Positions 20,703 through 63,680 of a DNA stretch of 64,000 nucleotides are shown here, piece after piece. A model generated the notes under the pieces. It had not been told where the DNA came from. It saw nothing but the letters and a program-made list of their open reading frames with translations, and ran no database searches. The position numbers were made by a program, and so were the translations under genes. The stretch's first letter is position 1. Each line of letters starts with the position of its first letter. Source of the DNA: an uncultured delta proteobacterium (GTDB lineage: Bacteria; Desulfobacterota; Syntrophia; Syntrophales; Smithellaceae); NCBI GenBank assembly GCA_963726395.1, contig CAVSCG010000006.1, positions 31,303-95,302 on the forward strand, in the 5' to 3' direction.

Positions 20703-21833
20703 ATGCATCAACCGGATGAAAACCAGATAAAAATATACAAACAGGCTGCGGCTTTTGCCGCCGAGTATATTGCCTGCCGACCGGATTTGCAGACGGGACA
20801 GGAATTTCCCACGGATCTGTGGCGGAAAATGGGAGAGGGCGGCCTTTTTAAAATCGGGATCACAGAAAATTACGGCGGCATAGGCGGCGGGTATCTCGAT
20901 CTATTGAAAGCGGGGGAGGCTTTTGTCAAAAGCGGATACAATCTTGGGCTTACCGTATCCTGGCTCTTCCAACAGATTATCGCCCGTTATGTCGTTGGTT
21001 CATTTGGCACGGCTCAGCAGCGTCGGCAATACCTGTGCGCTGCAGCCGAAGGAAAAATCACTTTTTCTTTTGCCGTCTCCGAACCGGGTCATGGCGCTTC
21101 TCCTAAAACGCTGGCCACGCAGGCTAAAAAAACTAAAACGGGTTACGTGCTGAACGGAGAAAAAACCTATCTGACTAACGGCCCCATCGCCGACATTTAT
21201 ATTGTCGTGGCCGTAACCGACGACACAGTTCCGCTTAAAAGTTTTACGGCGTTCATCGTGCCGCGCGATACGCATGGCATCACCGTAACACCGCCGATGC
21301 CCTTGAATTTTTTAAAACCTTCGCCGCACGGCGGCATTGAACTGAACAATTGCCTCATCGAGCAGAAATCTATTCTGGGAAAGAATGGGAGCGCCTGGCA
21401 GGACATCGTTGTCCCCTTGGGAGAAATAGAAGATGTGGTAATGATGGGACCTGTTCTGGGTGGCATGGCCGCGCAACTGGATCTTCTAACGGCCGCCATC
21501 CGGGAAAATTCTACGTCCGCAGATCGCGCCCTGCAGGGCGAATGGGGCGCCCTCAGCGCCTTTTGGCAAACCCTGCAAACCATCGCCTATGAAGCTGCCG
21601 GCAGGCTTGATCGGAGCGGCGACTCCCCTTCCCCTCTGCCCCTTGGCATTACCTTTGCGCGTCTTGCCGCCGAATTTCACACCAAAATCGCTCAACTGTC
21701 CGAACGCTGGAAAATTCCCGTGCCGAGCCAATACACTTATCTTCAGAGGGATATGGAATCGCTGGGAACACTTCAAAAAAGGCGCCTGCAAATCCGTCAG
21801 GAAAAAATCGGCGCCGCTCTGCTCAAAGCTTAA
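20703..21833 (+). CDS. Acyl-CoA dehydrogenase family protein with a divergent C-terminus
   Basis: FAVSEPGHG, YVLNGEKTYLTNG, FTAFIVP. Confidence 0.8.
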   Translation: MHQPDENQIKIYKQAAAFAAEYIACRPDLQTGQEFPTDLWRKMGEGGLFKIGITENYGGIGGGYLDLLKAGEAFVKSGYNLGLTVSWLFQQIIARYVVGSFGTAQQRRQYLCAAAEGKITFSFAVSEPGHGASPKTLATQAKKTKTGYVLNGEKTYLTNGPIADIYIVVAVTDDTVPLKSFTAFIVPRDTHGITVTPPMPLNFLKPSPHGGIELNNCLIEQKSILGKNGSAWQDIVVPLGEIEDVVMMGPVLGGMAAQLDLLTAAIRENSTSADRALQGEWGALSAFWQTLQTIAYEAAGRLDRSGDSPSPLPLGITFARLAAEFHTKIAQLSERWKIPVPSQYTYLQRDMESLGTLQKRRLQIRQEKIGAALLKA

Positions 21834-44990: not shown

Positions 44991-45103
44991 GGAACCCTTA
45001 CTGCCTTGTTAAAAAAATTAAGCCAACCGCGCTAAGCAGGCGAGTAAATGATAAAATCATTGTGTTGTCAAGTATAATTTGCTGTTTGAAAGGCAAAAGG
45101 CGC

Positions 45104-45133
45104 TTGACAAATAACGAGCCGCAACCCTATAAC
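45104..45133 (+). promoter_or_regulatory. Sigma70 promoter of gltX
   Basis: TTGACA-18 bp-TATAAC. Confidence 0.6.
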
Positions 45134-45157
45134 ACTGCAAAAATTAAGGGAAACAAT

Positions 45158-46566
45158 ATGACCACCAAAATACGCACCCGTTTTGCACCATCCCCGACCG
45201 GTTATTTGCACATCGGAGGAGCACGAACCGCTCTTTTTAACTGGCTTTTCTCCCGTCATAATGGCGGCGAATTTGTTTTAAGAATTGAAGATACCGATCA
45301 GCAGCGCTCAACCGACGAATCCACAAAAGCGATTCTGGATGCCATGACCTGGATGGGCCTGAATTGGGATGAAGGACCGCATTTTCAGGCCCAGCGCGTT
45401 GATCTGCACCGCGATATGGTGCAAAAACTGATCAATGAAGACAAGGCCTATATTTGTACCTGCACCTCCGAAGAACTGGAAACCAAAAGAAAAACGGCCC
45501 TGGCCGCCGGGAAAAAGCCCAAATATGACGGTACCTGTCGCGATAAAAAGTTAAAGAAATCAACAGGAAGTGTTGTGCGTTTCCGCGGCGCACAAACTGG
45601 CATCACCATTGTAGAAGACCTCATTAAAGGCAATATCAGCTTTAATAATGATGAGTTGGATGATTTGATCATCGAACGCGGCGACGGCTATCCGACGTAT
45701 AATTTTGCCGTTGTCATCGATGACGCGCTCATGAACATCACGCACGTCATCCGCGGTGACGACCATGTCAACAATACACCACGCCAGATTTTGATGTATC
45801 AGGCACTGGGTTTTGATGTGCCGAAATTCGCCCATGTCCCGATGATTCTGGGATCGGACAAGGCGCGTCTGAGCAAGCGCCATGGGGCTACATCCGTAAT
45901 GGCCTATAAAGAAATGGGTTACCTGCCGGAGGCGCTTGTCAATTATCTGGTGCGTTTGGGTTGGTCGCATGGGGATCAGGAGATTTTTTCTCGCAAAAGG
46001 AACTGATTGAATATTTCACTCTGGATGCCGTCGGCAAGTCACCCGCCGTCTTCAATCCCGAAAAACTGCTCTGGCTCAATGCGCATTATATAAAAGAAGC
46101 AACTCCGGCGCGATTGGCCGAAGACATGAAACCATTCTGGCCCGCCGGCGCCGATATAAATAACGCTTCATTCACGCAAAAAATCATCGCCGACTTGCAG
46201 CCGCGCAGCAAAACACTGGTCGAGCTGGCCGGGGCGGCGAATTTCTATTTTGTAGATCAGATTCAATATGAGGAACAAGCCGCACAGAAATTTTTGGTAC
46301 CCGACATGGCCGCCCATTTAAAGACAATGGCTGTCGCGATTCCGTCCGTGCAGGACTTCAGCAAAGAAGGCCTCGAAGGATTTCTCAAAACTTTCATCGA
46401 AGAACAGGGAATCAAATTTAAGGTGATCGCCCAACCACTACGGGTGGCGCTGACCGGAAAAACAGTTAGTCCCGGCATAGATGAAATCATGGTCACACTG
46501 GGCAAGGACCGCGTTATGCAAAGGATCAATGCGGCGGTTGCCTACATAGACAATCTGAATCAATAG
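45158..46566 (+). CDS. gltX: Glutamate-tRNA ligase; frameshift in a T6 run at 45984-45989
   Basis: [25 protein letters not shown]; anticodon-binding domain [12 protein letters not shown] in the second frame. Confidence 0.96.
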
Positions 46567-46746: not shown

Positions 46747-46821
46747 GGTCCCATCGTCTAGTGGTTAGGACGCTGGCCTCTCACGCCGGAAACCGGGGTT
46801 CAACTCCCCGTGGGACTACCA
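46747..46821 (+). tRNA. tRNA-Glu(CUC)
   Basis: GGTCCCA/TGGGACT acceptor stem, CTGGC-CTCTCAC-GCCGG anticodon arm, GGTTCAACTCC T arm, encoded CCA. Confidence 0.96.
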
Positions 46822-46881
46822 AAATAATATCAAATAGTTATAATATTATTCTTAATAACTACTTTAATTTCTCTTATTGAC

Positions 46882-46902
46882 TCCCCACACTATTCCCCAC
46901 AC
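46882..46902 (+). repeat. Direct repeat TCCCCACAC x2 (12-bp period), possible integrase arm-type sites
   Basis: 60 bp downstream of the tRNA-Glu 3' end, after an AT-rich spacer. Confidence 0.45.
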
Positions 46903-47041
46903 CCGGAATATAAAGACTGCCTTTTCTATCATCTCAATGGATTTTTTAACTTGTTCAATAAATCCCGGCAAAGGAGCTGATACCAAACGCAAGAATAATG
47001 TAAGAAATGCAAGCAGAAATACTTTTCTTGCCGATGGCCCC

Positions 47042-48877
47042 TTATTCCCAGAGATCCTTTGACGCCTGATCTAGTTCCAATTCCATCAGTTTCTCTCTTG
47101 TCGGTTTACCCGTTTCCCAGTCCCACTTGCTCACATCATAAAAATCCTTCAACATAAGATCCATAGCGGGTTCTATGCCTGCAGTTGCTCCCTCCTTCAA
47201 TGCTCGTCTAACAATTTTCGGCAGCTTATCATCCTGCCTTGTCACACCAAGCTTATTGTTGATAGCCCGCTTTAGGTTAAGGGACCGTTCGCCGAATATA
47301 AGCAAATCCATAGTTTTATATTGAATACCAGTGATGGCAGTAAGAGCTCGGGCAATCATCCCGGCTGGCATTGGTGAAAAATGACACAAGGTAAAACTAT
47401 TGTAGAGTTCACAGAAATGAAGCATTTTTGCTGTCAGCGCTCCTTTTTGTGCCGGATCGTTTTTATTGGAAAAAGAAATTCCCAGATCCAGGCCAACTTC
47501 GTTTCCCGGGGCATCCAAATTATAAAAACTGCCTTTCAAATGACAGGCACCTCTGGGACCAACGGCATATGAAAGCGCCGCGCCTTGGTAGGCTCGCGAG
47601 TCGTGCATTGGAAATTCAAGTCCTTTGACATGAGCCGCTTCTTCCGGATCCGCCCCGAGAAGTACGGCCATTTCCTTGACACCCTTGGATAAGATAACGC
47701 CGAAGCCCTCCTGCTTAATGATCATGTCCAGAAGCTTGAGAATAACCGCGCTATCACCCCATTTGATTTCCATACCGGCTTTTTCCTTTGTGAGAATGCC
47801 CTGCTCATACAAATGCATGGCAAATGCAATGGAAACGCCTGCCGACATAGTATCTATCCCATGACGATTACAGAAATGATTTGCTCTCACCACGGTATCA
47901 ATGTCAAAGTTCATGCAGAGAGGTCCAAATGCCGCCACAGTCTCATATTCAGGGCCGTCAACTGTTTTGATGTCGTCACTGAAGTCCTTGATGATCCGGC
48001 CACACCCGACCGGGCAACCGCTGCAGGCGTAAGTCGCCATATTATAACGTGATCGAAATGCCGGGCCGTGCAGCTTCTCCACGGGGAAAATGCTTTTGGT
48101 AAAATACTTCGTCGGAACATCCCCCAAGCGCATGCCCAGGTCAATATACATGTTTGTCCCGTATAATTTATAGCCGCTCGTATTGGGCGTACTCTTAATA
48201 CAATCACGAGCTTCCTCGATGAGTTTCTTAAGACCTTCGCTGTCTGCCGGTTCGGTCTTCTGATTTCCCGAAACGACTACAGCCTTCAGATTCTTCGAAC
48301 CCATCAAGGCACCCAAACCACATCTTCCCGCCGTCCGGCCTTCATCGTTCATGATGCCAGCAAACTTGAGTAATTTTTCTCCGCCCATGCCGATACAGGC
48401 GGTCGAAGCCTTTCCCCCGACTTCTTTATTGATCAAATCCTGTGTCTCGTAGCTGTCCTTGCCCCATAGGTGCGAAGCATCTTTAATTTCCGCTTTATCT
48501 CCCTTAACCAATAAATAGACTGGCGTATCGGACTTACCCGTGATGAGTATCCCGTCATAGCCGATACCTTTCAGACGAAAAGGGAAATTTCCTCCCGTCG
48601 TCGCTTCACCCCAAAGACCGCTTCCCGGTGCAATACCGCATATGGCCGCCCGGCTGACCATGGGGACGTTGGAGCCGATAAAGGGTCCCGTTGCAAAAAC
48701 TAAGGGATTTTCTGGCGCCAACGGGTCCATCCCAAGCTGGACATAGTCATAGATCAGTTTGGCCGCCAAGGTTGAACCGCCGACATATTTCTTCAAATCA
48801 TCATCGCTGATGGTTAAATCTTCGATTTTTTTATCGGTAAGATTTATCTTAAGGAATTTTCCAAAATAGCCCTTCAT
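47042..48877 (-). CDS. Aldehyde:ferredoxin oxidoreductase family protein (W/Mo-pterin)
   Basis: AGRCGLGALMGSKNLKA, CxxCPxxC, GPEYET, HGIDTMS, RGACH. Confidence 0.94.
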   Translation of the reverse strand: MKGYFGKFLKINLTDKKIEDLTISDDDLKKYVGGSTLAAKLIYDYVQLGMDPLAPENPLVFATGPFIGSNVPMVSRAAICGIAPGSGLWGEATTGGNFPFRLKGIGYDGILITGKSDTPVYLLVKGDKAEIKDASHLWGKDSYETQDLINKEVGGKASTACIGMGGEKLLKFAGIMNDEGRTAGRCGLGALMGSKNLKAVVVSGNQKTEPADSEGLKKLIEEARDCIKSTPNTSGYKLYGTNMYIDLGMRLGDVPTKYFTKSIFPVEKLHGPAFRSRYNMATYACSGCPVGCGRIIKDFSDDIKTVDGPEYETVAAFGPLCMNFDIDTVVRANHFCNRHGIDTMSAGVSIAFAMHLYEQGILTKEKAGMEIKWGDSAVILKLLDMIIKQEGFGVILSKGVKEMAVLLGADPEEAAHVKGLEFPMHDSRAYQGAALSYAVGPRGACHLKGSFYNLDAPGNEVGLDLGISFSNKNDPAQKGALTAKMLHFCELYNSFTLCHFSPMPAGMIARALTAITGIQYKTMDLLIFGERSLNLKRAINNKLGVTRQDDKLPKIVRRALKEGATAGIEPAMDLMLKDFYDVSKWDWETGKPTREKLMELELDQASKDLWE

Positions 48878-48881
48878 TGAA

Positions 48882-50177
48882 TCACCTCCATACGTCTGAA
48901 TTCATATCCAGTAAGTTACCTTCATAAGCACACAAAAATAAATCCCTCAACTGCTCCCTGTTCAGGTCATACCAACCAAAATAGAATGCAGGATCCGTCG
49001 GCGTTTGAGCCAGAATGAAATCAAGATTCTTTTCAAAATCACCCCTGGAAACCCCGGCATCCTTAAGGCTTATAGGGAGTTTCAGTTCAGTCATCAGGTT
49101 GCGGATCTTTTGGATCAGGTTGGCCAGACTTTTTTCAGCAGAGCTTTTATCCCGTATGCCTAACATATCGCAAATTTCAAGATGGCGATCTGTTACCTTA
49201 GAATAGACTTGGAGTTCATAGGTCAGAAACAACAAAACCATTGCACCATGATGAATGTGGTATAATCCTCCAATGGTATGGCCCAGGGCATGAGAAATCC
49301 CTGAACCCGCATTAGAGAGAGGAATCCCGGCCATAGTGGCCGCATACTGCATCTTAATCCTGGGCATGATGTCGTTGCCATCACGGTAAGCCTTCGGCAG
49401 CCAGTCGAAGATCATCTTAATCGCCTTCAGGGCGATGGCCTGATTCAATTCATCCGCTCGCGGAGCCATAAAGCCATCGACTGCATGGGCTAAAGCATCT
49501 CCGCCGGTTCCGGCCGTCAGCTGTTGCGGCATTCCGACCGACAGGGTCGGATCGAGAAGGGCAAAATCGGGGACGAATTCCGGCAGGGCACCGCCCACAC
49601 CGAGTTTCACACCATCGGGAAAGGATATAACCGCAATACCGGTAACCTCTGAACCGGTGCCGCTTGTTGTCGGGATGGCAACCAGCTTGGCTTTATTCCG
49701 CAGATTCAAAGGCATGAGGGGGCTGAGGATTTCAATGTTGGCATCCGGGTGTTCATACAAAAGCCACGCACCCTTTGCCGTATCCATCGATGAACCACCG
49801 CCGATAGCAAAGATAAGGTCAGGTCCAAACTGTCTCATCTTTGCCGCGCAATCCTTGACCGTATCGATTGGGGCATCAGGCTTCGCCTTGTCCCAGATTT
49901 CAAAGTTAATGCCGTGCCTTTTTTCATAAGGGCTCATGATCCTCGGAGCAAAGCGCACCGCGTATTCGTCCGTAACGATAAAAGCCTTCTTTGTTTTACA
50001 TTCCTTAGCCACTAAATCAACGGAATCGGGAAGAAGGCCCGCCTTATCCAGAAAAAGATTCAGTCCGGAAAATATTCTCGGTACAAAGAAAGCTCGTTGT
50101 GCCTCTTTTAAAAATTCTGCCTGCACCATGGGACCACCCCAGGTTCTCAGCAAATATTCGTGTGACCAGTAGCTCAT
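48882..50177 (-). CDS. Iron-containing alcohol dehydrogenase
   Basis: GGGSSMD, IPTTSGTGSE, DALAH, HALGH, HHG. Confidence 0.92.
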   Translation of the reverse strand: MSYWSHEYLLRTWGGPMVQAEFLKEAQRAFFVPRIFSGLNLFLDKAGLLPDSVDLVAKECKTKKAFIVTDEYAVRFAPRIMSPYEKRHGINFEIWDKAKPDAPIDTVKDCAAKMRQFGPDLIFAIGGGSSMDTAKGAWLLYEHPDANIEILSPLMPLNLRNKAKLVAIPTTSGTGSEVTGIAVISFPDGVKLGVGGALPEFVPDFALLDPTLSVGMPQQLTAGTGGDALAHAVDGFMAPRADELNQAIALKAIKMIFDWLPKAYRDGNDIMPRIKMQYAATMAGIPLSNAGSGISHALGHTIGGLYHIHHGAMVLLFLTYELQVYSKVTDRHLEICDMLGIRDKSSAEKSLANLIQKIRNLMTELKLPISLKDAGVSRGDFEKNLDFILAQTPTDPAFYFGWYDLNREQLRDLFLCAYEGNLLDMNSDVWR

Positions 50178-50283
50178 ATTTCCTCCTTACCTTTCTATAT
50201 GGGTGACGAAGCTGTCCGTTATTGCTAACTTGATTTTTTACGTATGGCTATGTAGCAATGAATCTGCATACAAATGAGATCTC

Positions 50284-50637
50284 CTAAGTTGTACAGAATT
50301 TTAAGACGGAGCCAAACCAGGTAAAATCGTGAACCTTGCCGTCAATGCAGACAAAATGATTCTGGAGGGCATGCTTGATTCCTTCTTCGCCGTTCTTAAG
50401 TCCATTGAACGCAGTCTCCGCATCACTCCAGACCATTGCAGCATCAAAATCATCCAGAACTTCATCCGCGGAAAATTTGCCGTCTTTAAAGATGAAGCGC
50501 TTCCCCCGTTTGCCGTCCTTTGTTTTGATTACAATGGTACATTCATGACCCATCAGAAATTTCTTAAAATCATTGTTGGTCTGGGAAGCTCCTTCGAATA
50601 TGGAGACCAAGAAACTAAGCAGTTCTGAAAATTCCAT
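50284..50637 (-). CDS. Small protein, probable SCP2-like fold
   Basis: RBS present; helix, strands (IVIKTKDG, RFIFKDGK), then ALQ...IDG pattern resembling SCP2. Confidence 0.55.
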   Translation of the reverse strand: MEFSELLSFLVSIFEGASQTNNDFKKFLMGHECTIVIKTKDGKRGKRFIFKDGKFSADEVLDDFDAAMVWSDAETAFNGLKNGEEGIKHALQNHFVCIDGKVHDFTWFGSVLKFCTT

Positions 50638-51092
50638 AAATTCCCCTTCCTTTTACATGATCGATGTGAACAATTGGACCATCCATTTTACGATGATGAA
50701 ACATTAAACGATACTCCCTGTGCGGTATGGAGATCACCGACAACTTTGCCGCTTTATGTTTAATAAAGCATGCTCATTTCTACTCTCGCTTAGGACATTA
50801 GTCAATTTCTTCTTTATAGTGCCTTAAAAATAATATCATCTTAATCTAAGACGATGCGCTGTCTCTTGAACAAAGAATATTATATATAAGTTAAGATTTA
50901 TACTGTATTATTTAACATTAAGTTGTATTTAAATAAATAATGGATTGTTTTTTATTGCAGTTCAACAATCTTTTGTGTTTAACTTATTTACGGTAATGTC
51001 CTGATGGGTAATCTTTTCTCCCGCTAGGATACGAGGCAATAACAAATCCAAAACGTTCAGCTTGTTGCGAATGGCCTATTCAAAATAGCAAA

Positions 51093-51131
51093 GCACAAAA
51101 TACCCCTCGCTTGCGGAGGAGTATTTTGTGC
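51093..51131. repeat. Inverted repeat / REP-like hairpin upstream of the ThiF gene
   Basis: GCACAAAATAC/GTATTTTGTGC perfect 11-bp arms. Confidence 0.5.
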
Positions 51132-51155
51132 AGATATGGACCATAAGAGATATAA

Positions 51156-52034
51156 ATGAATGATACCCCAAAAAACAGGAGATTTCTTAAAGAGCTAAAT
51201 AGATTAGCTATAGAAATTCTCGATTGCAAAAGTAACCTTAAGATTAAGGTTCTGTATGAGGAAGAAGCGATAAAGTTGGCATTGAAATATCAATCTACCC
51301 TCAAGTCTGTATATGTCGAAGCCATGAAGTTGGGGGTATGCCCTTATCGATACATTCGGAATCGGGAATCTATTTCAATACAGGATCAAACCAAACTTGC
51401 AGAGTCTCGAATAGCTGTTATCGGCTCCGGTGGGTTGGGGGGGCATGTGATCTTGTTGCTGGCGAGAATTGGGATTGGCCATCTTAGAATAATTGATGGT
51501 GATGTATTCGATGAAACAAATTTGAATCGACAGCCTTTGTGTAACATAGAAACCATAAATAAAGCAAAACCGAAGGTAGCAGCAAATGTGGTAAATCTGA
51601 TTAATCCTTCAGTAGAGGTTTCAATTATTACAGACAAGGTGAATGTTGCCAATGCAGAACATATTCTCTCTGAGGTTGATGTGATTGTCGATGCTCTCGA
51701 TAATATGGATGACCGTCTTATGATTGAAAAGGTTGCAAAAAAAAATAGGATCCCGTTCGTACACGGCGCAGTTGCCGGTTTCGAAGGCCAGGTAACGACA
51801 ATATTTCCTGAGGACAAGGGATTAACGTTTCTCTATGGGGAAAATAGTTGTCAGGTAAATGACAAGTATTCTCCGGAAGCTATTTGGGGTGTACCGGTTT
51901 TAGCTCCTGCTTTAATAGCATCCATGCAGGCCATGGAGGTTGTAAAAATTATCCTTAACCGTCGAGAGATTTTTAGAAATACCTTAGTCCATGTGGACTT
52001 GGAAAAAGGGCAATTCAATAAATATGAATTTTAA
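51156..52034 (+). CDS. HesA/MoeB/ThiF family adenylyltransferase
   Basis: RYIRN, GSGGLGG, DGDVFDETNLNRQ, DALDN. Confidence 0.92.
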   Translation: MNDTPKNRRFLKELNRLAIEILDCKSNLKIKVLYEEEAIKLALKYQSTLKSVYVEAMKLGVCPYRYIRNRESISIQDQTKLAESRIAVIGSGGLGGHVILLLARIGIGHLRIIDGDVFDETNLNRQPLCNIETINKAKPKVAANVVNLINPSVEVSIITDKVNVANAEHILSEVDVIVDALDNMDDRLMIEKVAKKNRIPFVHGAVAGFEGQVTTIFPEDKGLTFLYGENSCQVNDKYSPEAIWGVPVLAPALIASMQAMEVVKIILNRREIFRNTLVHVDLEKGQFNKYEF

Positions 52035-52132
52035 TAAACCAGATTGTTATTTATTAGCTTTGTATTCGCGGCATAATTCCTGACTGATTCATTCATGGGA
52101 GATAAGCATCTAAAAGCTTCCTGAGGACAGTA

Positions 52133-52354
52133 TCACCCACCGGACAATAACGTCACCAGGATCACCTCATCCCCGTCTTTCATTTTTTCATTGAGCGGGA
52201 TACTTTTTCCGTTTACAATGGAAACCATCTTGAGTTTTCCGGGAATTTTCAGATCGCGAATAAGTTGTTCAGGGGTAAGGCCATCGGCAGTCTCCAATTC
52301 ATGTTCTGTAAAATACTTCCTGATGACGCCGACCGGCCTTACCTTGATTTTCAT
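52133..52354 (-). CDS. MoaD/ThiS family sulfur carrier
   Basis: VNGK, DGDEV, C-terminal SGG. Confidence 0.88.
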   Translation of the reverse strand: MKIKVRPVGVIRKYFTEHELETADGLTPEQLIRDLKIPGKLKMVSIVNGKSIPLNEKMKDGDEVILVTLLSGG

Positions 52355-52364
52355 GAATAAAATC

Positions 52365-54233
52365 CTACCACACACTGGCTGCCTCTTGGCTTAAGCCGTA
52401 TGCACCAAGGGCCGCTTTGGAAGGTATCCCTTTCTCGGGGTCCATGTCCATGAGCTCGTAGAATTTTTCTTTCATTCCCGTAAAGTTGATTTCGACCCCT
52501 TCCGGTTCCCCGTCCCGCGCCGGCTCAAGCATCCGCGGCGTCAGTTCGTCGTCCTTGGCGGTAAGTCCATACCGGTAATTAATGAGTCGCTTGAGATAGT
52601 ATATCCGGCGTCCCGCTTTCATCATATCCGGAATTTCCCATTTGTAGCCGGGCACCGTGTTGAAGAGATCCAACCATTCAGGTATGGTGACTTCACGGTC
52701 GGCAAACTGACAGAAACAGGCGCTGTTTTCCAGTGCTCCCATTGCGATCGATATGACTGCAGCCTCGGGCTTGTTTTCATCCGTCTTGGGCTCGAGAACA
52801 AACTCGAAACCGATCTCGGGCCAGAAGCAGGCCCCCATCTCCACGAAAAGCATCGGATCGGCGACATGACATGCACCCCTCGCGCCCATGGCGTAAGTGA
52901 GGGCCATCCCGTGCCCGCCGCCGCGCGGGTCGTGCATCGGCGCCTCGAGCCTCTTGCTCTGGGTGGTGTAGCTAAGGGAATCCTTGCCGATTTTTTCAGC
53001 AGCCGCCACGCTCCCTTCGGCAAGGAGCGCGCCGAGTTTGCCTTCCCTTTTCGCCATCTTCGGAAGCACGACGTTGATGACTGTTTCCATATCACCCCAT
53101 TGGAGTTTGACTCCGTCGGTATCCGTTTCGGTGATATCTCCCCTTTCGAAAGCCTCCATTGCCCATGCGATGGTCACGCCCGATGATATGGTGTCCATAC
53201 CCATGTCATTGCAGATTTTATTCGCCTTGCATACAGCCGCAAGGTCCAGCGAACCAATCAGCGCGCCGTAGGAAACGATCGTCTCGTATTCGGGACCTGG
53301 GCCCTCGGGAATGGCCCAGGGACCTTCCTTGACCTCGACGACCCGCTTGCAGGCGATTCCGCAATAAGCGCAGGCGCTCCGTTTTGTCAGGTACTTCTCG
53401 CTGAGCGTGGACCCGGTAAGGGCATCAGCCATCCCTTCCCAGGAGTTCGATGTAAAGTTTTTGATGGGAACGTCGCCTGTGAACGCGCCGCCTTCGAGGT
53501 TGGCAGCTGTGCCATTTTCGTGCAGCAAGCTCGCGGCAAGTGAATCCTTCATCTTCGGGTTGAGCTCTTTCCTGAGCTTCTCATATTTCACCGGGTCGGC
53601 AAGATCCATCTCCTTTTTCTCAGCCTTGACCACTATGGCCTTGAGGTTTTTTGAGCCCATCACGGCGCCGAATCCGGTACGCCCGAAGACGTGGTGTCCT
53701 TCGTTCAGGATGGCCGCAAATTTCACGAGGTTTTCCCCTGCCGGGCCTATGACGACGGTGCGGTGAGTCTTGCCGTATTTCTTCTTCAACTCCTTGTTTA
53801 CTTCCTCTATTCCCTTGCCCCAGTATTCGGTGCCGTCCACAATGGCTATTTTATCATCCTCTATGAGGAGCACGGAAGGCCCGGGTGACTTCCCGGTTAT
53901 GACGATGCCGTCATAACCCGCGTATCGGAGCTCCGGGGCGAAAAACCCTCCGCAGGAGGAATCCGCCCAGTGCCCCGTGAGGGGCGAACGGCCCGCGACG
54001 CTGTTCCTGCTGGCGCCATTGAGCTTTAATCCCGAGAAGGGTCCGTTCATGAAGATGAGCATCGCCTCCGGAGAGAGGGCGTCCGCGTTGAAGTCGCCCT
54101 TTTCCCAGAAGTACTTTGCGGCAAGCCCGCTTCCCCCGACGTACTCCCTGTAGTTGTTCTCCGGCAGTATTTCGATGGAAACAGCGCCCACATTAAGGTC
54201 TACCCGTATTATCTTACCTGTATTGGCTTTCAT
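52365..54233 (-). CDS. Aldehyde:ferredoxin oxidoreductase family protein (W/Mo-pterin)
   Basis: SPLTG, GRTGFGAVMGSKNLKA, CAYCGIAC, GPEYET, DMGMDTIS, RGACH. Confidence 0.95.
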   Translation of the reverse strand: MKANTGKIIRVDLNVGAVSIEILPENNYREYVGGSGLAAKYFWEKGDFNADALSPEAMLIFMNGPFSGLKLNGASRNSVAGRSPLTGHWADSSCGGFFAPELRYAGYDGIVITGKSPGPSVLLIEDDKIAIVDGTEYWGKGIEEVNKELKKKYGKTHRTVVIGPAGENLVKFAAILNEGHHVFGRTGFGAVMGSKNLKAIVVKAEKKEMDLADPVKYEKLRKELNPKMKDSLAASLLHENGTAANLEGGAFTGDVPIKNFTSNSWEGMADALTGSTLSEKYLTKRSACAYCGIACKRVVEVKEGPWAIPEGPGPEYETIVSYGALIGSLDLAAVCKANKICNDMGMDTISSGVTIAWAMEAFERGDITETDTDGVKLQWGDMETVINVVLPKMAKREGKLGALLAEGSVAAAEKIGKDSLSYTTQSKRLEAPMHDPRGGGHGMALTYAMGARGACHVADPMLFVEMGACFWPEIGFEFVLEPKTDENKPEAAVISIAMGALENSACFCQFADREVTIPEWLDLFNTVPGYKWEIPDMMKAGRRIYYLKRLINYRYGLTAKDDELTPRMLEPARDGEPEGVEINFTGMKEKFYELMDMDPEKGIPSKAALGAYGLSQEAASVW

Positions 54234-54253
54234 AATTTACCTTATAATGTGTT

Positions 54254-54673
54254 CTATTTCATTATCTTATCAGCCCAACCCAGATCGGTGAGAGCCTTCT
54301 CATAGATCACCGCCACCTTTTTCAGCTTAGGCGCCAATTTCAACAAGCCCACCGCGGAGCCTTTCACACGTATCTTCTTCCGCGTGATGGCCATGACGGG
54401 GTTGAGCTTGTTCGACCAAGACCTGTGGGCGTCATCGGCGGAAAGACTCATGGTCAGATCGGGTTCTTCCGAAGGTTTACCTTGACTGACCTTGTAGTTG
54501 CCATTGCGGCAGTCCACCCAGATGGAGCAATCGGGGCCAGATTCGGTGTAATCGAAGAGTATGAGCTGATTGACCTTCCGGAGCCCTTCGCTCAGTTCGG
54601 GATCTTTCCCACAATCTTCAAAAAGTCTTACAACGGCCGTGACGCATTCATTCGAATCTTTCCAGTATTCCAT
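54254..54673 (-). CDS. SCP2 sterol/lipid-binding domain protein
   Basis: PDLTMSLSADD...LNPVMAI...KIRVKG...LLKL. Confidence 0.85.
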   Translation of the reverse strand: MEYWKDSNECVTAVVRLFEDCGKDPELSEGLRKVNQLILFDYTESGPDCSIWVDCRNGNYKVSQGKPSEEPDLTMSLSADDAHRSWSNKLNPVMAITRKKIRVKGSAVGLLKLAPKLKKVAVIYEKALTDLGWADKIMK

Positions 54674-54692
54674 GTTATTCTCCTTTCGTTTG

Positions 54693-55889
54693 TTATATTG
54701 CTTTCATATAAAGTTTCAAAATATCTTCATCTTCTAAGTAGTGTGGATTGTAACTAACCTGGCCGTCCGCCGCCGCCAGTTCCACCAGCGACTTCAGCTT
54801 TTCCGGGTCATTGGGAACCTTGAAATCCTTCAGCGTGTCGGTGAGGCCGATCTTCTTTTTAAGGCTGATAACGGCCTTTACCGCCATCTTCGCGGCTTCC
54901 GCCGGCTTCTTGTCCTTCACATCGAGCCCCATGGCGTCCGCAATCATCATGTATCGTTCCGGAACATCAGATGCGTTGAAATCCATCACGACGGGAAGCA
55001 TGATGGCGTTGGCGAGCCCGTGTGGAATTCCATAGAGGGCACCCAAGGAGTGGGCCGTTGCATGAACCCCGCCGGTCATGGTATTAACAAAGCACATCCC
55101 GGCAATGCTGCTCGCTAGGAGCATGTGACCCCGGGCTGTAATGTCCTCCGGGTTCTTGACGGCGATAGGAAGATACTTGAAGATGAGACGTATGGCATGG
55201 AGCCCCAGTGCGTCGGCAATGGGCTCGGCCCCCGTGGAGGTTATTCCTTCAATCGCGTGGGTCAGTGCGTCCATCCCTGTGAAGGCCGTAATCTTCGCTG
55301 GTAGTTTGATGGTAAGCTCCGGGTCCAGCATGGCGATGTCGCAGTTGCAGTAAGGATGAGTAACCTGGAGCTTGGCGTGCACCGCGACATCCAGAACGAC
55401 CATGGCGTTTGTAATTTCGCAACCCGTCCCCGCCGTTGTCGGAAAGGCGATGTGGGGGGGAAGAGGCTTCGCCCCTTCCCAAAGGGCGGCCTGCGCGGCT
55501 AATGGGGCAAAGTCATCTTCACCACCGCTGATCATGATGTTTACCGCCTTCGCGGTATCCATGACGCTGCCTCCCCCTACCGCGATCATGCAATCGGCGC
55601 CGCATTTCCTGTAAAAGGCGGCACCCGCGTTGATGATGTCGATTCTCGCGTCCTGAATAATAGAGTCGAAGACTCCGGCCAGTTCGAGATCCGACTTCCT
55701 CACTTCCTCTGCTACCATTTCAACGATGCCGGCCGCAACCAGGCCCTTGTCGGTGAAAATGACAGCTCTTTTACCACCCAATTGCGCCATCTCATATCCC
55801 ACCTCTGACCTGAGTCCAGGGGAATACATAATCCTCGGCCTGTTGACCCAGCTAAATAATGGTTCAAATGTAATGTTCGGATACTTCAT
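54693..55889 (-). CDS. Iron-containing alcohol dehydrogenase
   Basis: GGGSVMD, PTTAGTG, MDALTHAIEG, HATAH, IPHG. Confidence 0.94.
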   Translation of the reverse strand: MKYPNITFEPLFSWVNRPRIMYSPGLRSEVGYEMAQLGGKRAVIFTDKGLVAAGIVEMVAEEVRKSDLELAGVFDSIIQDARIDIINAGAAFYRKCGADCMIAVGGGSVMDTAKAVNIMISGGEDDFAPLAAQAALWEGAKPLPPHIAFPTTAGTGCEITNAMVVLDVAVHAKLQVTHPYCNCDIAMLDPELTIKLPAKITAFTGMDALTHAIEGITSTGAEPIADALGLHAIRLIFKYLPIAVKNPEDITARGHMLLASSIAGMCFVNTMTGGVHATAHSLGALYGIPHGLANAIMLPVVMDFNASDVPERYMMIADAMGLDVKDKKPAEAAKMAVKAVISLKKKIGLTDTLKDFKVPNDPEKLKSLVELAAADGQVSYNPHYLEDEDILKLYMKAI

Positions 55890-56085
55890 GCCACGCCCCC
55901 TTTTGTTAGTTTTTTATTTTTTTTAAATTTGGATTTAAATTAACATTGTTGTCGAAATTTGTACTTAATTTATATTAAAAAATAATTATTATCAACTTTT
56001 AAAATCATTTAAAATCATCTTTTTTTATTGTCAAGTCAAAAATGGATTGGACTGTGAGAATTTCAGTCTTACAGGTCAGGTTAAT

Positions 56086-56202
56086 ATGTGTCATATAACT
56101 CTTGCCATGACGACGCGGTATGCTCACCTAATGCCAGAGCACGAGAGACAGGCAACAATGATGCTTTTGATGGCAACCAACAGAGGCGTCCCGGAATCTT
56201 GA
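56086..56202 (+). pseudogene. Tyrosine recombinase/integrase C-terminal remnant
   Basis: Translates MCHITLAMTTRYAHLMPEHERQA, matching box II (M/L)GH...MT.RYAHL. Confidence 0.75.
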
Positions 56203-56369: not shown

Positions 56370-57137
56370 ATGGAGATCAAAGGACTGTCCGGATTGCCAG
56401 CCAAGGAAATTGACACGCTGCTATTCGACCTTGATGGAACAATCATAGACATAAGCAAGAAGGCAGAGATTCTCTTTTATGTTCGTGTATTTCAACGATT
56501 CAAAAGTTATTTCAATCCCATTTCCTTCTATTTTTCGTTCTGGAAATCCATGCGTCACATGCGGGCAAACAATACGGAACGTTCCAACTACGATGTGTTC
56601 ATTGAAAAAATGGCCCAGTTCGGGCGGACCACACCGCAGGTTATTGATTCGCTTGCATCTGAAATGGTAGAAAAAGATTTTCAATCTCTTGGTGACTTCT
56701 TTAAGCCAGTGCTTGGTGCACGCGAAGCCATTGTCCTTGCGAATGAACTGGGATACCGACTGGTACTGGCCACTAATCCCGTCTTCCCGAGAAAAACTGT
56801 CTTATACAGGATGGAATGGGCCGGACTGATGCCCGACGACTTCCTGTTCATCACCAGTTCTGAGGACATGAACCGGTGCAAACCCAGCGTTGAATTTTAT
56901 GAGAGACTTCTTACACGTCTGGATCTAAAACCTGAACAATGCCTGATGATCGGCAATAATCCGGCCGATGACCTTCCGGCCCATGACATCGGAATCCGGA
57001 CCTTTCTTGTGGAAACACTTCTTTCCACAAAAATAGTCCGGAAAAGCATCACAGATAAACGGCTCGATGCTCGAGGCACCTATCCGGATTTGATCAACTG
57101 GATGAAAAAAAGAATATTGTTGGCCAAAGTGTCTTGA
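56370..57137 (+). CDS. HAD family hydrolase
   Basis: FDLDGT, LATNP, KP, MIGN...D. Confidence 0.9.
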   Translation: MEIKGLSGLPAKEIDTLLFDLDGTIIDISKKAEILFYVRVFQRFKSYFNPISFYFSFWKSMRHMRANNTERSNYDVFIEKMAQFGRTTPQVIDSLASEMVEKDFQSLGDFFKPVLGAREAIVLANELGYRLVLATNPVFPRKTVLYRMEWAGLMPDDFLFITSSEDMNRCKPSVEFYERLLTRLDLKPEQCLMIGNNPADDLPAHDIGIRTFLVETLLSTKIVRKSITDKRLDARGTYPDLINWMKKRILLAKVS

Positions 57138-57186: not shown

Positions 57187-59853
57187 ATGAAAACACAATA
57201 CCTAATGGCAATTGATGTGGGAGGAGGCTCTGGACGCTGTCTCCTGCTGGATCCCGAAACCGGAGCAATCAAGACGGCAAAACGAAACTGGACCCATCCC
57301 GCCGCACCCGGCACCAGTGGTCTCGGGTACTCTATTGACACCAACGACATCCTGAAAAAACTCGGTGATGCGTCCCGCGAGGTCCTCGCCAAGGCAGGGG
57401 CCACCCCAAGTCAGATTGCCGGCATTGCGGCAAGCGGTATGCGCAATACGATTGTTGTCCTGGATGCTCAAGGCGACATCCTGCTGGCAACCCCCAATCG
57501 GGATGCCCGGGCTCTGGGCGAAGGCATGGTGCTGGGGGCTGAACGAGGAAAAGAATTTCACACCGTCACAGGCCATTGGCCAACCCCATTGTTCCTCGGC
57601 ACGCGTCTGATCTGGATGAAAAACAACACCCCTGATCTTTTTAAACGCGCGTCCGTCGCCTTATCGGTCACCGACTGGATAGCCTTTCTTCTGTCAGGGA
57701 AAATGGTCTCCGAATGCTCCCAGGCGGGCGAATCACTCCTTTTTGACCTGAAACGACGCCAGTGGGCTTTTGATCTCATCGATTCCCTCGGGTTTCCCCG
57801 ATCACTCTTTCCCATGCCGGTGGACTCCGGCGCTCGCCTCGGACCACTTACAAAACAAGCGGCCGACCTCCTGGGCCTTGTCCCCGGTATACCCGTGGCT
57901 GCAGGTGGAGCGGATACCCAGTGCGGCCTCTTGGGTGCTGGTGCTATAAAAGACGGCGACGTTGCCGTCATCGCCGGCACGACCATGCCACTGCAGCTGG
58001 TGACCGATAAACTGATCCTGGATGAATCCGGCAGGCTCTGGAGCGGACAGCATGTCGTGCCGGGCCAATTCATTCTCGAGAGCAACGGGATGGTGACCGG
58101 TGACGTCATCGACTGGTTTGCCCGACTTCTATATCCGGATTCCCCCGATGCGACCCTGAGCCTCTTTGCTGAGGCAGCAACATCTCTTCCGGGGGCCGCT
58201 AACGTCTATTCCACTTTTGGATCTGCGATATTCGACGGAAGGGGCGTCGGCCTACCGATCGGCAACCTCACGCTTTCCCACATGATCACGGGTGACGCCT
58301 CCAAGAGTCGCAGGCACATCGCCCGTGCTCTCGTTGAAGGAATCGCCTTCTCCGTCCGCGCCAACCTCGAACAGATCATCTCCGTCTCCGGCAAAAAAAT
58401 CCTTACCGTAAGGGTAGCCGGCGGCATGTCCAAAAGTTCACTCTTCACCCAGACTGTCTCTGACGTGACAGGATGCACGGTCCTCGTCCCTTCCAACGCT
58501 GAAGTTACATCTGTTGGAGCAGCCGTGCTCGCGGGTGTCGGGGCAGGAATATTCACCGATCCTTCCTCCGGGGCCAAAAAAGTAGCCACAGCTTTGAATG
58601 AACATCGACCTGATGTAAGAGCAGCAAAATACCAAAACCTCTATACCGGCTGGCGTCAGGCCTTCGACAAACGCGTCGAGACCGATACTCATGTCGGCAA
58701 TCTTCTAACCGCTGCGCTCTTCGAGCCTTCGCCCACAGCGGGCAGGGCAGCCGATCCGTCCTTTTCACCGAATATTTTTATCACCGCCTCTATGGATCAG
58801 ACAGCGATTAACGAATTTGAAGAAATCGGTCATGTGGTTTATGCCGGATGGCGGGAGAAGATGAAGATATACGACGGCGCCGCAGACCTGATCGAGGCAC
58901 TTTCCGGTGTGCAAATATTCGTCACCGAAATGGACGTGGTGGATTTTCCGGCCATCCGCGAGGCGCGAGATCTGCGAGCGATCGTCACCTGCAGGGGAAA
59001 CGCTGTCAACGTTGATCTGTCAACCGCCACCGCTTACGGCATCCCCGTCATCAATACTCCCGGAAGGAATGCCGATGCCGTCGCGGACTTGACCGTCGCC
59101 TTCATGGTGATGCTTGCCCGTAAAATGCCCGGTTCCTTCGACTTCCTTAAACACGACCAAATAAAATCGGGTGACATGGCCAAGATGGGAGAGGCCTATC
59201 TGAAATACCAGGGCAAAGAACTCTGGAGAAAGACCGTCGGGCTGGTGGGGATGGGCAACGTCGGCGCTTGTGTTGCCGCAAGGCTGTCCCGCTTCGGGAC
59301 CAGGGTTATCTTCTACGACCCGATGATAACCGCCGAGGCCGGTTCTCTGCTTTTGGCCCGGAAGGTATCCCTCGCTGAATTGCTGGCCATAAGCGATTTT
59401 GTGAGTCTTCATGCTCCTGCGATTGAGGCTACTAGAGGGATGATGAACCGTGAAGCCTTCGATCAAATGAAACCGGGAGCTTTCTTCATCAACACCGCCA
59501 GGGCATCCCTTGTGGATGAAACAGCCATTTTGTGGGCACTGACAACAGGCAAGATTGCCGGGGCCGGTTTGGATGTTTTCTCAACCGAGCCCCCGGGAAC
59601 GGACGACCCCATCGTCTCTCATCCCAACGTTATCGCCACCCCGCACCTGGGTGGAAACACAACCGAGATCGCGGCACATCAGGGAGCCATCGCTATCGGC
59701 CAGATCAAAAAACTTCTGGCAGGAGAGCGGCCGGACTATATCCTGAATCCCGAAGTCCTGGACACTTTCAGCTGGTTAGGTCCACGCCCTGAGCTGGACG
59801 AAAAGAAACTAGAGGAGCTTTCCAAAAACAAGCGGCCTTCCATCACGTCATAG
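57187..59853 (+). CDS. FGGY-family (LsrK/xylulokinase-like) kinase fused to a D-2-hydroxyacid dehydrogenase
   Basis: AIDVGGGSGR, DAR, GGADTQ, AGG.SKS; C-terminal GMGNVG, INTAR, LDVF..EP, TPHLGG. Confidence 0.88.
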   Translation: MKTQYLMAIDVGGGSGRCLLLDPETGAIKTAKRNWTHPAAPGTSGLGYSIDTNDILKKLGDASREVLAKAGATPSQIAGIAASGMRNTIVVLDAQGDILLATPNRDARALGEGMVLGAERGKEFHTVTGHWPTPLFLGTRLIWMKNNTPDLFKRASVALSVTDWIAFLLSGKMVSECSQAGESLLFDLKRRQWAFDLIDSLGFPRSLFPMPVDSGARLGPLTKQAADLLGLVPGIPVAAGGADTQCGLLGAGAIKDGDVAVIAGTTMPLQLVTDKLILDESGRLWSGQHVVPGQFILESNGMVTGDVIDWFARLLYPDSPDATLSLFAEAATSLPGAANVYSTFGSAIFDGRGVGLPIGNLTLSHMITGDASKSRRHIARALVEGIAFSVRANLEQIISVSGKKILTVRVAGGMSKSSLFTQTVSDVTGCTVLVPSNAEVTSVGAAVLAGVGAGIFTDPSSGAKKVATALNEHRPDVRAAKYQNLYTGWRQAFDKRVETDTHVGNLLTAALFEPSPTAGRAADPSFSPNIFITASMDQTAINEFEEIGHVVYAGWREKMKIYDGAADLIEALSGVQIFVTEMDVVDFPAIREARDLRAIVTCRGNAVNVDLSTATAYGIPVINTPGRNADAVADLTVAFMVMLARKMPGSFDFLKHDQIKSGDMAKMGEAYLKYQGKELWRKTVGLVGMGNVGACVAARLSRFGTRVIFYDPMITAEAGSLLLARKVSLAELLAISDFVSLHAPAIEATRGMMNREAFDQMKPGAFFINTARASLVDETAILWALTTGKIAGAGLDVFSTEPPGTDDPIVSHPNVIATPHLGGNTTEIAAHQGAIAIGQIKKLLAGERPDYILNPEVLDTFSWLGPRPELDEKKLEELSKNKRPSITS

Positions 59854-63500: not shown

Positions 63501-63680
63501 ATCCATGACGTCGGGACTGGCGCCTTTAAGTGTCGTCGTGATGGTGACAATGGGGAAATCGATCTTGGGGAAAAGATCAACTCCGATGGATGGATAACTG
63601 ACGATGCCCAGCACTACCAGAGCCATGATCACCATCGTGGCAAATACGGGTCGTTTGACAGAGGTATCAGCGAGCCACAT
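60536..63680 (-). CDS. RND efflux permease (AcrB/AcrD/AcrF family); frameshift in an A7 run at 62147-62153
   Basis: RPVFA, GLLIDDAIIVIENI, GLVKKNAILLVD, RMRPILMT; deleting one A joins the two ORFs. Confidence 0.94.

Follow-up and report, generated by a model that had tools for sequence, protein, structure and literature searches.

Two-step, coenzyme A (CoA)-free oxidation of primary alcohols to acids by an alcohol dehydrogenase (ADH) and a tungsten-dependent aldehyde:ferredoxin oxidoreductase (AOR) is known from Pelobacter, Desulfovibrio, acetogens and Pyrococcus, and the known substrates of such pairs are short-chain or otherwise small, or aromatic. The SCP2 fold, an alpha/beta fold that combines helices with a five-stranded sheet, is known for its part as a lipid-binding module that serves an enzyme of a poorly soluble substrate; examples are human MFE-2 with its SCP-2L domain, SdsA1 with its SCP2 domain, and UbiJ/UbiT; the SdsA1 alkylsulfatase structures include one with 1-dodecanol, according to its PDB title. 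Here we describe a stretch of 64,000 nucleotides (the window; positions 31,303 to 95,302 of contig CAVSCG010000006.1, assembly GCA_963726395.1) from an uncultured delta proteobacterium of the Smithellaceae, in which two neighbouring gene cassettes each combine an iron-type ADH (Fe-ADH), an AOR and a small SCP2-fold protein. Because the arrangement recurs in dozens of other genomes, it is far beyond chance, and the ADH and SCP2 genes stay paired where another aldehyde oxidiser occupies the place of the AOR. We propose that the cassettes may oxidise hydrophobic primary alcohols to acids, with the SCP2-fold protein as carrier.

An earlier note on this DNA, made from the letters alone, had read the locus as two co-oriented operons, [SCP2-like, Fe-ADH, AOR] and [Fe-ADH, SCP2, AOR, MoaD], with a MoeB/ThiF gene between them and a tRNA alongside. 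That parts list is right, as judged by open reading frames (ORFs), Pfam, AlphaFold2 (AF2) models searched with Foldseek, and ARAGORN, and its gene coordinates in 47042-55889 match the ORFs exactly (8/8 genes). The modules and their genes are as follows (lengths in amino acids, aa).

50637-47042, minus strand: module 1, in order of transcription SCPL1, ADH1, AOR1 (ORFs, Pfam and fold model)
50284..50637, minus strand: SCPL1, SCP2-fold protein without a Pfam family, 117 aa; first gene of module 1 (AF2 and Foldseek)
48882..50177, minus strand: ADH1, iron-type (group III) alcohol dehydrogenase, 431 aa; module 1 (Fe-ADH and ADH_Fe_C)
47042..48877, minus strand: AOR1, single-subunit aldehyde:ferredoxin oxidoreductase family, 611 aa; last gene of module 1 (AFOR_N and AFOR_C)
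51156..52034, plus strand: ThiF/MoeB-type adenylyltransferase, 292 aa; between the modules (Pfam ThiF)
55889-52133, minus strand: module 2, in order of transcription ADH2, SCP2, AOR2, MoaD-like (ORFs and Pfam)
54693..55889, minus strand: ADH2, iron-type (group III) alcohol dehydrogenase, 398 aa; first gene of module 2 (Fe-ADH and ADH_Fe_C)
54254..54673, minus strand: SCP2, SCP2-family protein, 139 aa; module 2 (Pfam SCP2)
52365..54233, minus strand: AOR2, single-subunit aldehyde:ferredoxin oxidoreductase family, 622 aa; module 2 (AFOR_N and AFOR_C)
52133..52375, minus strand: MoaD/ThiS-like sulfur carrier; last gene of module 2 (Pfam ThiS)

The gene junctions are of operon type in both modules. 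The gap between ADH2 and SCP2 is 19 nt and contains AAGGAG, and that between SCP2 and AOR2 is 20 nt; in module 1, AGGAGG precedes the ATG of ADH1, and the AOR1 ribosome-binding site GGAGG sits within the final codons of ADH1.

Set against the described ADH and tungsten AOR systems, the locus has the same enzyme families, its single-subunit AORs being closest to P. furiosus AOR and to AORs of bacteria, and the same two-step, CoA-free chemistry; it differs in its SCP2-fold gene, which is the best-kept member of the cassette here and is not known from any of those systems, nor did a literature search find it there. Unlike the SCP2 modules of MFE-2, SdsA1 and the Ubi proteins, with which they share the fold, the SCP2-fold proteins of this locus stand alone, unfused and operon-encoded, and are partnered with an Fe-ADH and an AOR, and SCPL1 lies outside Pfam SCP2. 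The linkage of AOR, MoaD and MoeB genes has already been published: the available text of Iyer, Burroughs and Aravind (2006, PMC1779556) calls the cluster sporadic and possibly mobile, and that of PMC6365974 describes a related AOR cofactor neighbourhood, aorD/aorE of Aromatoleum aromaticum. As in those clusters, a MoaD-like gene directly follows AOR2 and a ThiF/MoeB gene adjoins; unlike them, the locus adds ADH and SCP2 partners, which the available text of the two papers does not mention. Module 1 has no MoaD of its own, and no gene for an AorA/AorC-type electron-transfer subunit appeared in the Pfam scan of the locus. The earlier note had known of no characterised system of this composition, and our literature search, which left most subscription journals and supplements outside, likewise found none, nor any SCP2 partner of an AOR or Fe-ADH. 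The main text of a 2026 classification of tungsten oxidoreductases (PMC13328260) contains none of the terms SCP, sterol, alcohol dehydrogenase and MoaD, and PMC12583861, PMC13685792 and PMC7773648, checked without their supplements, say nothing in this connection about SCP2, sterol carriers, ADH or aldehydes. The pairing of ADH with AOR and the AOR-MoaD-MoeB linkage are already known; the SCP2 partner is the part that we did not find in print.

All Pfam assignments (AFOR_N and AFOR_C, Fe-ADH and ADH_Fe_C, SCP2, ThiS, ThiF) exceed the curated cut-offs. Both AORs have the full-length AFOR_N plus AFOR_C architecture and score far above these cut-offs (AOR1: AFOR_N 237.5 bits, E 1e-70, and AFOR_C 371.1 bits, E 9e-111; AOR2: 242.4 and 348.7 bits). 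The best solved relatives of AOR1 are themselves AORs, namely 9mqx (368 bits), 9g7j and 1aor, and the solved chain closest to AOR2 is the Pyrococcus furiosus AOR, 1aor (369.5 bits). In their translations and pairwise alignment, both proteins have the cluster cysteines, CxxCxxxC (CSGCPVGC in AOR1, CAYCGIAC in AOR2) with an aligned distal Cys, as well as GPEYET with its conserved Glu; the [4Fe-4S] CxxCxxxC plus distal Cys and GPEYET Glu motifs are those of the P. furiosus enzyme. The NCBIfam AOR equivalog scored 207 and 199 bits, against a cut-off of 868. Indeed, no NCBIfam equivalog exceeds its cut-off for any gene of either module, and NCBIfam therefore supplies no substrate-level name. Judging from the family, the adjacent MoaD and ThiF genes and the lack of AorA/AorC subunits, the two AORs would carry a tungsten bis-pyranopterin cofactor and use ferredoxin as acceptor.

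The two ADHs fall into different subgroups. For ADH1, which has an N-terminal extension of ~45 aa, the closest solved chain is the ADH domain of AdhE (3zdr, 222 bits); for ADH2, the closest are 9ldl, methanol dehydrogenase, DhaT and FucO. The GGGS motif and the metal-ligand positions D207, H211, H276 and H290 of ADH2 are invariant across 34 orthologues, and ADH1 has GGGS and the D/H/H/H positions in alignment with ADH2. These Asp/His/His/His positions are those of Escherichia coli FucO.

The earlier note had proposed SCP2 folds for both small proteins, and models and structure searches bear this out, joined for the 139-aa protein by Pfam. SCP2 scores 43.1 bits against Pfam SCP2 (PF02036; gathering cut-off 21.3), and its sequence matches in the PDB are SCP2 domains (6e-5). 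Its AF2 model (predicted local distance difference test, pLDDT, 89.0) has 26 PDB matches at E <= 0.001 in Foldseek, with human SCP-2L and yeast SCP2 on top at 22-28% identity. The protein has 403 homologue clusters, and the 120 matches listed are 138-141 aa long and 71-96% identical to it. SCPL1, in contrast, has no Pfam match even at E <= 10 and no NCBIfam match. It nevertheless appears to be a real, conserved gene, with 125 homologue clusters, nearly all of 117 aa and none with a Pfam domain. Its AF2 model (pLDDT 89.4, predicted template-modelling score, pTM, 0.81) matches 25 PDB chains at E <= 0.001, all of them SCP2 proteins or domains with template-modelling (TM) scores of ~0.6-0.65: the best is UbiJ-SCP2 (E 6e-6, TM 0.64), and others at the top are alkylsulfatase C-terminal domains, AF1534 and rabbit and human SCP2. 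Its atlas feature neighbours include clusters named SCP2. The structures closest to both small proteins bind C12-C16 ligands. Between SCPL1 and SCP2 no sequence relation is detectable by BLASTP (E 0.17) or by hhalign against the SCP2 family (probability 1.6%). Given this value and the lack of a Pfam match at E <= 10, we file SCPL1 by its modelled fold only, as a predicted SCP2-fold protein and not a member of PF02036. Orthologues of SCPL1 share invariant H31, E32, C33 and H94 and a nearly invariant H103, which are missing from more distant paralogues.

To follow module 2 in other genomes, we took one genome per species and the best 80 of 111 stretches encoding an SCP2 relative. They come from metagenome-assembled genomes (MAGs) labelled Smithella, Syntrophaceae/Syntrophales, Desulfomonile, Desulfatirhabdium, Syntrophorhabdaceae, Desulfobacterales, Spirochaetota/Leptospirales and Zymogenaceae. 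The window proteins were located in these loci by tblastn, and the counts use 30% query cover (50% in a first pass); a locus was evaluated where it had at least 1250 nt upstream (71 loci) or at least 2300 nt downstream (68), so that 9 and 12 loci, respectively, were excluded as too short. An ADH lies directly before SCP2 in 70/71 evaluable loci, at a median gap of 21 nt, with L034 as the exception. An AOR follows within 3 kb downstream in 63 of the 68, and within 400 nt in 60; the AOR2 orthologues are 59-94% identical. Module 1 is conserved in the same way. We sampled 401 genomes across the phylum for SCPL1 and found matches in 18, four of them at the level of orthologues (65-69% identity), and SCPL1-ADH1-AOR1 is intact in all four orthologous loci (ADH1 82-86% identical, over all 431 aa; AOR1 80-84%). 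The neighbourhood survey suggested in the earlier note has been run with this result, and the triad is conserved elsewhere.

The five loci without an AOR (L005, L044, L051, L059 and L067) bear most directly on function. In each, another aldehyde oxidiser comes directly after ADH2-SCP2; at L044 the oxidiser follows SCP2, and the upstream DNA is too short to judge the ADH. At the AOR position L005 has an NAD-type aldehyde dehydrogenase of the Aldedh family, and the other four have a molybdenum enzyme of 842-906 aa with Fer2_2, Ald_Xan_dh_C and MoCoBD_1/2 domains, followed in L051, L059 and L067 by a DsrC-like protein, a class-V aminotransferase (cysteine desulfurase-like) and XdhC. In its architecture this protein, with its maturation genes, corresponds to the molybdenum aldehyde oxidoreductase of Desulfovibrio gigas (MOP); MOP is not encoded in the window, and its type serves as a functional substitute for AOR in these 4 surveyed loci. 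ADH2-SCP2 in the AOR-less loci is 77-84% identical to that of the window. Three unrelated families with one activity thus occur at one position, and it follows that ADH-SCP2 would make an aldehyde that must be oxidised. To our knowledge, NAD-dependent aldehyde dehydrogenases and enzymes of the xanthine oxidase family do not reduce acids, and because of this the replacements favour the oxidative direction, in which the cassette would run from alcohol through aldehyde to acid. A role for SCP2 as a chaperone for cofactor insertion into AOR was considered and rejected: SCP2 stays with ADH2 where the aldehyde dehydrogenase or the molybdenum enzyme replaces AOR.

Small SCP2-fold proteins also occur in other enzyme settings. 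Sixteen SCPL places were taken for comparison, and 11 of them (L100-L110) were scanned with Pfam. L101 (3196-9719; genome G370, of the window's own family) holds both SCP2 types in one cassette, SCP2(PF02036)-FeADH-AOR-94-aa ORF-SCPL-ThiF-LarA_N. In ten loci with an SCPL paralogue (33-39% identity), a thiamine diphosphate (ThDP) enzyme directly adjoins in 7/10, a Zn-ADH is present in six and an extended short-chain dehydrogenase/reductase (SDR; epimerase/3beta-HSD/NAD_binding_4) in four, and L100 combines an SCPL paralogue with Mo-hydroxylase maturation genes. In these lineages, small SCP2-fold proteins thus turn up repeatedly beside enzymes that form or use aldehydes. An SDR-SCPL-ThDP enzyme-Zn-ADH cassette was seen in L102, L103, L104 and L106-L110, and L104:5933-10283 corresponds to contig C33 of the window's own genome; this cassette suggests another pathway for hydrophobic aldehydes. 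L105 (6253-11141) encodes a TetR regulator, an SCPL paralogue, an 845-aa glycyl radical enzyme (PFL-like and Gly_radical) and a radical-SAM activase; here a glycyl radical enzyme that acts on a hydrophobic substrate may have an SCP2-fold partner to itself.

The reading that we prefer, and that we would trust about as far as we would doubt it, is that each cassette is a soluble two-step system for the oxidation of a primary alcohol to the acid, with an SCP2-fold carrier for the hydrophobic intermediate or substrate. With NAD(P)+ as its acceptor, the Fe-ADH would turn the primary alcohol into the aldehyde. The single-subunit AOR would oxidise this aldehyde to the carboxylic acid and reduce ferredoxin, and the SCP2-fold protein would keep hold of the alcohol, which dissolves poorly, and/or of the aldehyde, which is hydrophobic and reactive, and hand it from enzyme to enzyme. 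For module 2, MoaD and ThiF would provide the dithiolene sulfur of the pterin for the AOR cofactor. The labelled hosts are degraders of fatty acids, alkanes and aromatic compounds, and leptospires use long-chain fatty acids and alcohols for growth. From the sole known property of the fold, the independent recruitment of two SCP2 lineages and this host lifestyle, we infer a hydrophobic substrate (fatty, isoprenoid or aromatic), which the SCP2 proteins would bind as a ligand, with ferredoxin as the likely acceptor.

A wider claim, which we advance tentatively and consider less likely to hold than the reading just given, is that stand-alone SCP2-fold proteins are obligatory shuttle subunits of an unrecognised class of anaerobic pathways for water-insoluble alcohols and aldehydes, one that would include the SCPL paralogues found with ThDP-lyase/Zn-ADH/SDR and with glycyl-radical systems. 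The SCP2 protein would take a fatty or isoprenoid alcohol from the membrane and present it to the soluble Fe-ADH, and the aldehyde would pass to the ferredoxin-reducing AOR (or to the Mo-AOR or aldehyde dehydrogenase). Long-chain alcohols could then enter beta-oxidation and yield low-potential electrons, and to this end at least two SCP2 lineages, unrelated to each other, would have been drawn in independently.

Several observations weigh against a carrier of hydrophobic substrates as we propose it. At L034, SCP2-AOR has no ADH next to it and follows a DUF6785/DUF6784 protein, and L098 (4363-6664, minus strand) has an AOR (43% identical to AOR2) and then a PF02036 SCP2 with no ADH, a pair that is divergent from the module 1 orthologue at the same locus. 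The Fe-ADHs are closest to enzymes that act on short chains (FucO, DhaT, methanol dehydrogenase, AdhE). The flanks of the 80 loci contain no conserved lipid-specific gene, be it for an acyl-CoA synthetase, beta-oxidation or a transporter; what recurs there is an AMIN-domain protein (21 loci), asparagine synthase (18), GT2 (16), a CitMHS transporter (12) and others, clusters that look lineage-specific and that we did not use to name the substrate. Among 234 candidates there was no fused or longer form of the 139-aa SCP2, which is weak evidence. The median identity to the window in 56 complete triads is higher for SCP2 (74%) than for ADH2 (68.6%) and AOR2 (68.2%), a difference that is biased by the choice of loci for SCP2 similarity. 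Evidence from RNA, which counts on both sides, consists of contigs from four metatranscriptome libraries of two sediment studies; such libraries may hold DNA, and contigs cannot rank genes. Module 2 is covered piecewise, with many contigs free of mismatches (X15, X16); one mismatch-free contig spans the MoaD/AOR2 junction, and one from a related strain spans the ADH2/SCP2 junction. Module 1 is barely covered, by three pieces, and we do not read the uncovered parts, which include most of it, as silence. The contigs are compatible with transcription of module 2 in sediments. A complex prediction for ADH2 and SCP2, both given as alignments, scored 0.05 against a mark of 0.32, which is no evidence either way.

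The alternative that survives best, which we nevertheless consider unlikely, is that the cassettes oxidise short-chain or hydrophilic alcohols such as ethanol, propanol or diols, with the SCP2-fold protein in a structural, regulatory or ADH-stabilising role. It accords with the small substrates of the closest characterised Fe-ADHs and with flanks that hold no conserved lipid genes, and oxidation of ethanol by ADH and AOR is established in Pelobacter according to the available text of PMC4275255. Strong conservation of the 139-aa SCP2, with 56 invariant columns of 141 and a median identity above that of both enzymes (subject to the bias just mentioned), would fit a role in protein-protein contact. 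On the other hand, two unrelated SCP2-fold families and their paralogues have each been recruited to aldehyde enzymes, which is hard to understand without a hydrophobic ligand tunnel, and the closest structures are lipid-bound SCP2s. We also know of no SCP2-type partner in the well-studied ethanol-oxidising ADH/AOR systems, which counts against this alternative.

The earlier note had allowed that the pathway might instead run in reverse. In that direction reduced ferredoxin would drive reduction of a fatty or aromatic acid by AOR, ADH would make the alcohol and SCP2 would carry the product, either as an electron sink or as a source of fatty alcohols from which ether lipids or wax esters are made. 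According to the available texts of PMC9295118, PMC10816221 and PMC12727526, AORs work in both directions and reduce acids that have not been activated, and the hosts, as syntrophs and sulfate reducers, have low-potential ferredoxin. The AOR-less loci stand in the way: all five combine an ADH2-SCP2 highly similar to that of the window with an NAD-type aldehyde dehydrogenase or a xanthine-oxidase-family Mo enzyme, which by general knowledge only oxidises aldehydes. Moreover, no acyltransferase or ether-lipid gene is conserved nearby. We judge reversal improbable, and less likely than the use of short-chain alcohols; the oxidative, carrier-assisted reading remains the one that we prefer.

The earlier note had also called the modules duplicated, and here our analysis departs from it. 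Features that bear on the comparison, in addition to the genes above, are the following.

46747-46821, plus strand: tRNA-Glu (CTC), found by ARAGORN; borders the variable stretch with module 1
46844..51057: variable stretch holding module 1, between tRNA-Glu and hairpin (alignment with L002)
51093..51131, minus strand: terminator-like hairpin of 16 bp with a T-run (consensus scan only); the other border of the variable stretch
55890..56100, minus strand: AT-rich region 5' of ADH2 with promoter-like hexamers (sequence)

A consensus scan alone gave three promoter-like sites upstream of module 2 on the minus strand (56315-55967), in a region that has 19 such sites against 13.6 expected.

AOR1 and AOR2 are 33% identical, ADH1 and ADH2 32%, and the two small proteins have no detectable sequence similarity. 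The gene order also differs (SCPL1-ADH1-AOR1 against ADH2-SCP2-AOR2-MoaD), as do the ADH subgroups. Each module has its own orthologues in other lineages, at 60-94% identity. The closest relative, L002 (a Smithella sp. MAG), has module 2 without module 1: it aligns at 87.5% over window positions 60406-51058 and at 94% over 46843-45197, and in place of module 1 it has 2.6 kb of other genes, which encode ATC_hydrolase, a lipid A acyltransferase and part of a cytochrome c552. A quick maximum-likelihood tree of 25 AORs gives full support both to the AOR1 group (4 rows) and to the AOR2 group (13 rows); a tree of this quick kind does not tell whether the two groups are sisters. Because of the low identities, the unrelated small proteins, the different gene order and ADH subgroups, the separate orthologues and the state of L002, the modules appear to be separate and anciently diverged, and a recent duplication within the genome that left redundant copies of one pathway, for which the shared parts list, the common strand and the distance of only 1.5 kb would speak, is very improbable. 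Around module 1 we found only short, chance-like direct repeats and no integrase gene as possible scars of integration, and the term genomic island for this stretch describes its variability and not a mechanism.

The distribution of the cassettes is uneven. An SCP2 orthologue (at least 52% identity) occurs in 17 other genomes of 400 sampled, with matches of 39-46% in six more, and carriers of an orthologue include complete genomes on a single contig. It is present in 10/10 genomes of one family, whereas the family to which the window belongs has it in 0/7, the two genomes of the window's genus among them, and a Spirochaetota MAG carries an 84% identical copy. Both cassettes would accordingly be classed as accessory and patchily distributed, to judge by the genomes sampled. 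This patchy spread agrees with the view of AOR-MoaD-MoeB as a mobile gene cluster, as put forward in the available text of PMC1779556. The two cassettes probably take different substrates, since they appear separate, anciently diverged and patchily distributed and are kept side by side. As for habitat, 69-90% of sampled words from a 9.1-kb stretch of the locus were found in 14 DNA runs labelled sediment, freshwater sediment or metagenome.

The presumed cofactor genes of module 2 are conserved to different degrees. The MoaD-like protein scores 31.1 bits against Pfam ThiS (cut-off 22.5) and ends in LLSGG, that is, in Gly-Gly; its true start is probably the internal ATG at 52354, which would give 73 aa. 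A cluster of 73-aa ORFs follows AOR in 32 loci of the module 2 survey, and tblastn finds MoaD in 33/57 module 2 loci, an undercount for so small a protein. The ThiF protein scores 188 bits against Pfam ThiF and stays below the cut-offs of the NCBIfam equivalogs MoeB (151.9 against 449), ThiF and UbaA. It is retained beside MoaD only in the two closest loci, L002 and L003 (86% identity), and it probably activates the MoaD-like protein. The earlier note's assignment of MoaD and MoeB to the pterin cofactor holds up, in that MoaD and ThiF beside an AOR fit the tungsten-cofactor neighbourhoods described in the available texts of PMC1779556 and PMC6365974.

A dedicated partner of the lipid-carrier type is retained across a large number of uncultured Desulfobacterota, and in some Spirochaetota, from sediments and digesters, and sediment metatranscriptome libraries contain it as well. 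If our reading is correct, it could explain how strict anaerobes feed long-chain alcohols derived from waxes, ether lipids and detergents into beta-oxidation, and the use of such alcohols would gain reduced ferredoxin for the release of hydrogen or formate. The SCP2-fold protein would be a rare case of a prokaryotic lipid-transfer protein built into a catabolic enzyme pair, and AORs and ADHs already tuned to hydrophobic substrates would be of interest for acid-to-alcohol biocatalysis. The SCPL1 family of ~125 clusters, which has no Pfam entry, gains a function-linked context.

Elsewhere in the window's genome, AOR and Fe-ADH occur as one protein. Contig C23:67843-70554 (L093:976-3690) encodes a 904-aa ORF with AFOR_N, AFOR_C (2-344 of 385) and a complete Fe-ADH domain, the first ~50 residues being in another frame. 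In a sample of the order Syntrophales the fusion was matched in 5 other genomes, in 4 of them full-length and in one frame (83%, 70%, 56% and 55%) and in the fifth at 76% over residues 1-762 with one TGA; three genomes have single fusion ORFs of 949-975 aa with all four domains (L121:6247-9096; L122:6034-8961, minus strand; L123:5896-8811). Such a conserved AOR::Fe-ADH fusion indicates, at the level of gene structure, that the two enzyme types work together. No SCP2-like gene lies near the fusion in the loci examined, and the literature search found no publication on a fusion protein of this kind. The fusion adjoins a HpaB/4-hydroxybutyryl-CoA-dehydratase-like gene and an acyl-CoA dehydrogenase gene.

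Acyl-CoA genes and SCP2 domains abound in the window and its genome, with 7 PF02036 matches in the genome. Within the window, 19407-20474 (plus strand) encodes an FMN reductase/flavodoxin-like domain fused to a C-terminal SCP2 domain, and its neighbours are an acyl-CoA dehydrogenase (20703-21833), a ferredoxin-like gene and an acyl-CoA synthetase. A lone AOR on contig C10:50507-51686 (L092), with a split ORF and 60% identity to AOR2, falls inside the AOR2 clade of the quick tree, and family searches of the genome placed no Fe-ADH or PF02036 SCP2 on that contig. Several other AOR genes in the genome are also broken. In the window, gltX is split into two overlapping frames (45062-46006 and 45961-46566, plus strand; catalytic and then anticodon-binding domain), and an AcrB-type transporter into two ORFs (60536-62119 and 62124-63680, minus strand). 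Such split and broken genes may be assembly indel errors or pseudogenes.

Among the flanking genes, in two genomes of one genus (L096 and L097) module 1 has a fumarate-reductase-type flavoprotein (FAD_binding_2 and Succ_DH_flav_C) downstream (L096:2131-3708 and L097:1901-3478, both minus strand) and a class-II aldolase/GatZ-like protein upstream (L096:7602-8987 and L097:7609-9057, both minus strand), neither of which occurs in the window. Upstream of module 2, the window encodes an 888-aa fusion of an FGGY sugar kinase and a D-2-hydroxyacid dehydrogenase (57187-59853, plus strand), with a HAD phosphatase gene 5' of it (56370-57137); both the kinase fusion and the phosphatase are kept in L002 (95% and 89% identity) and in none of the other 79 loci.

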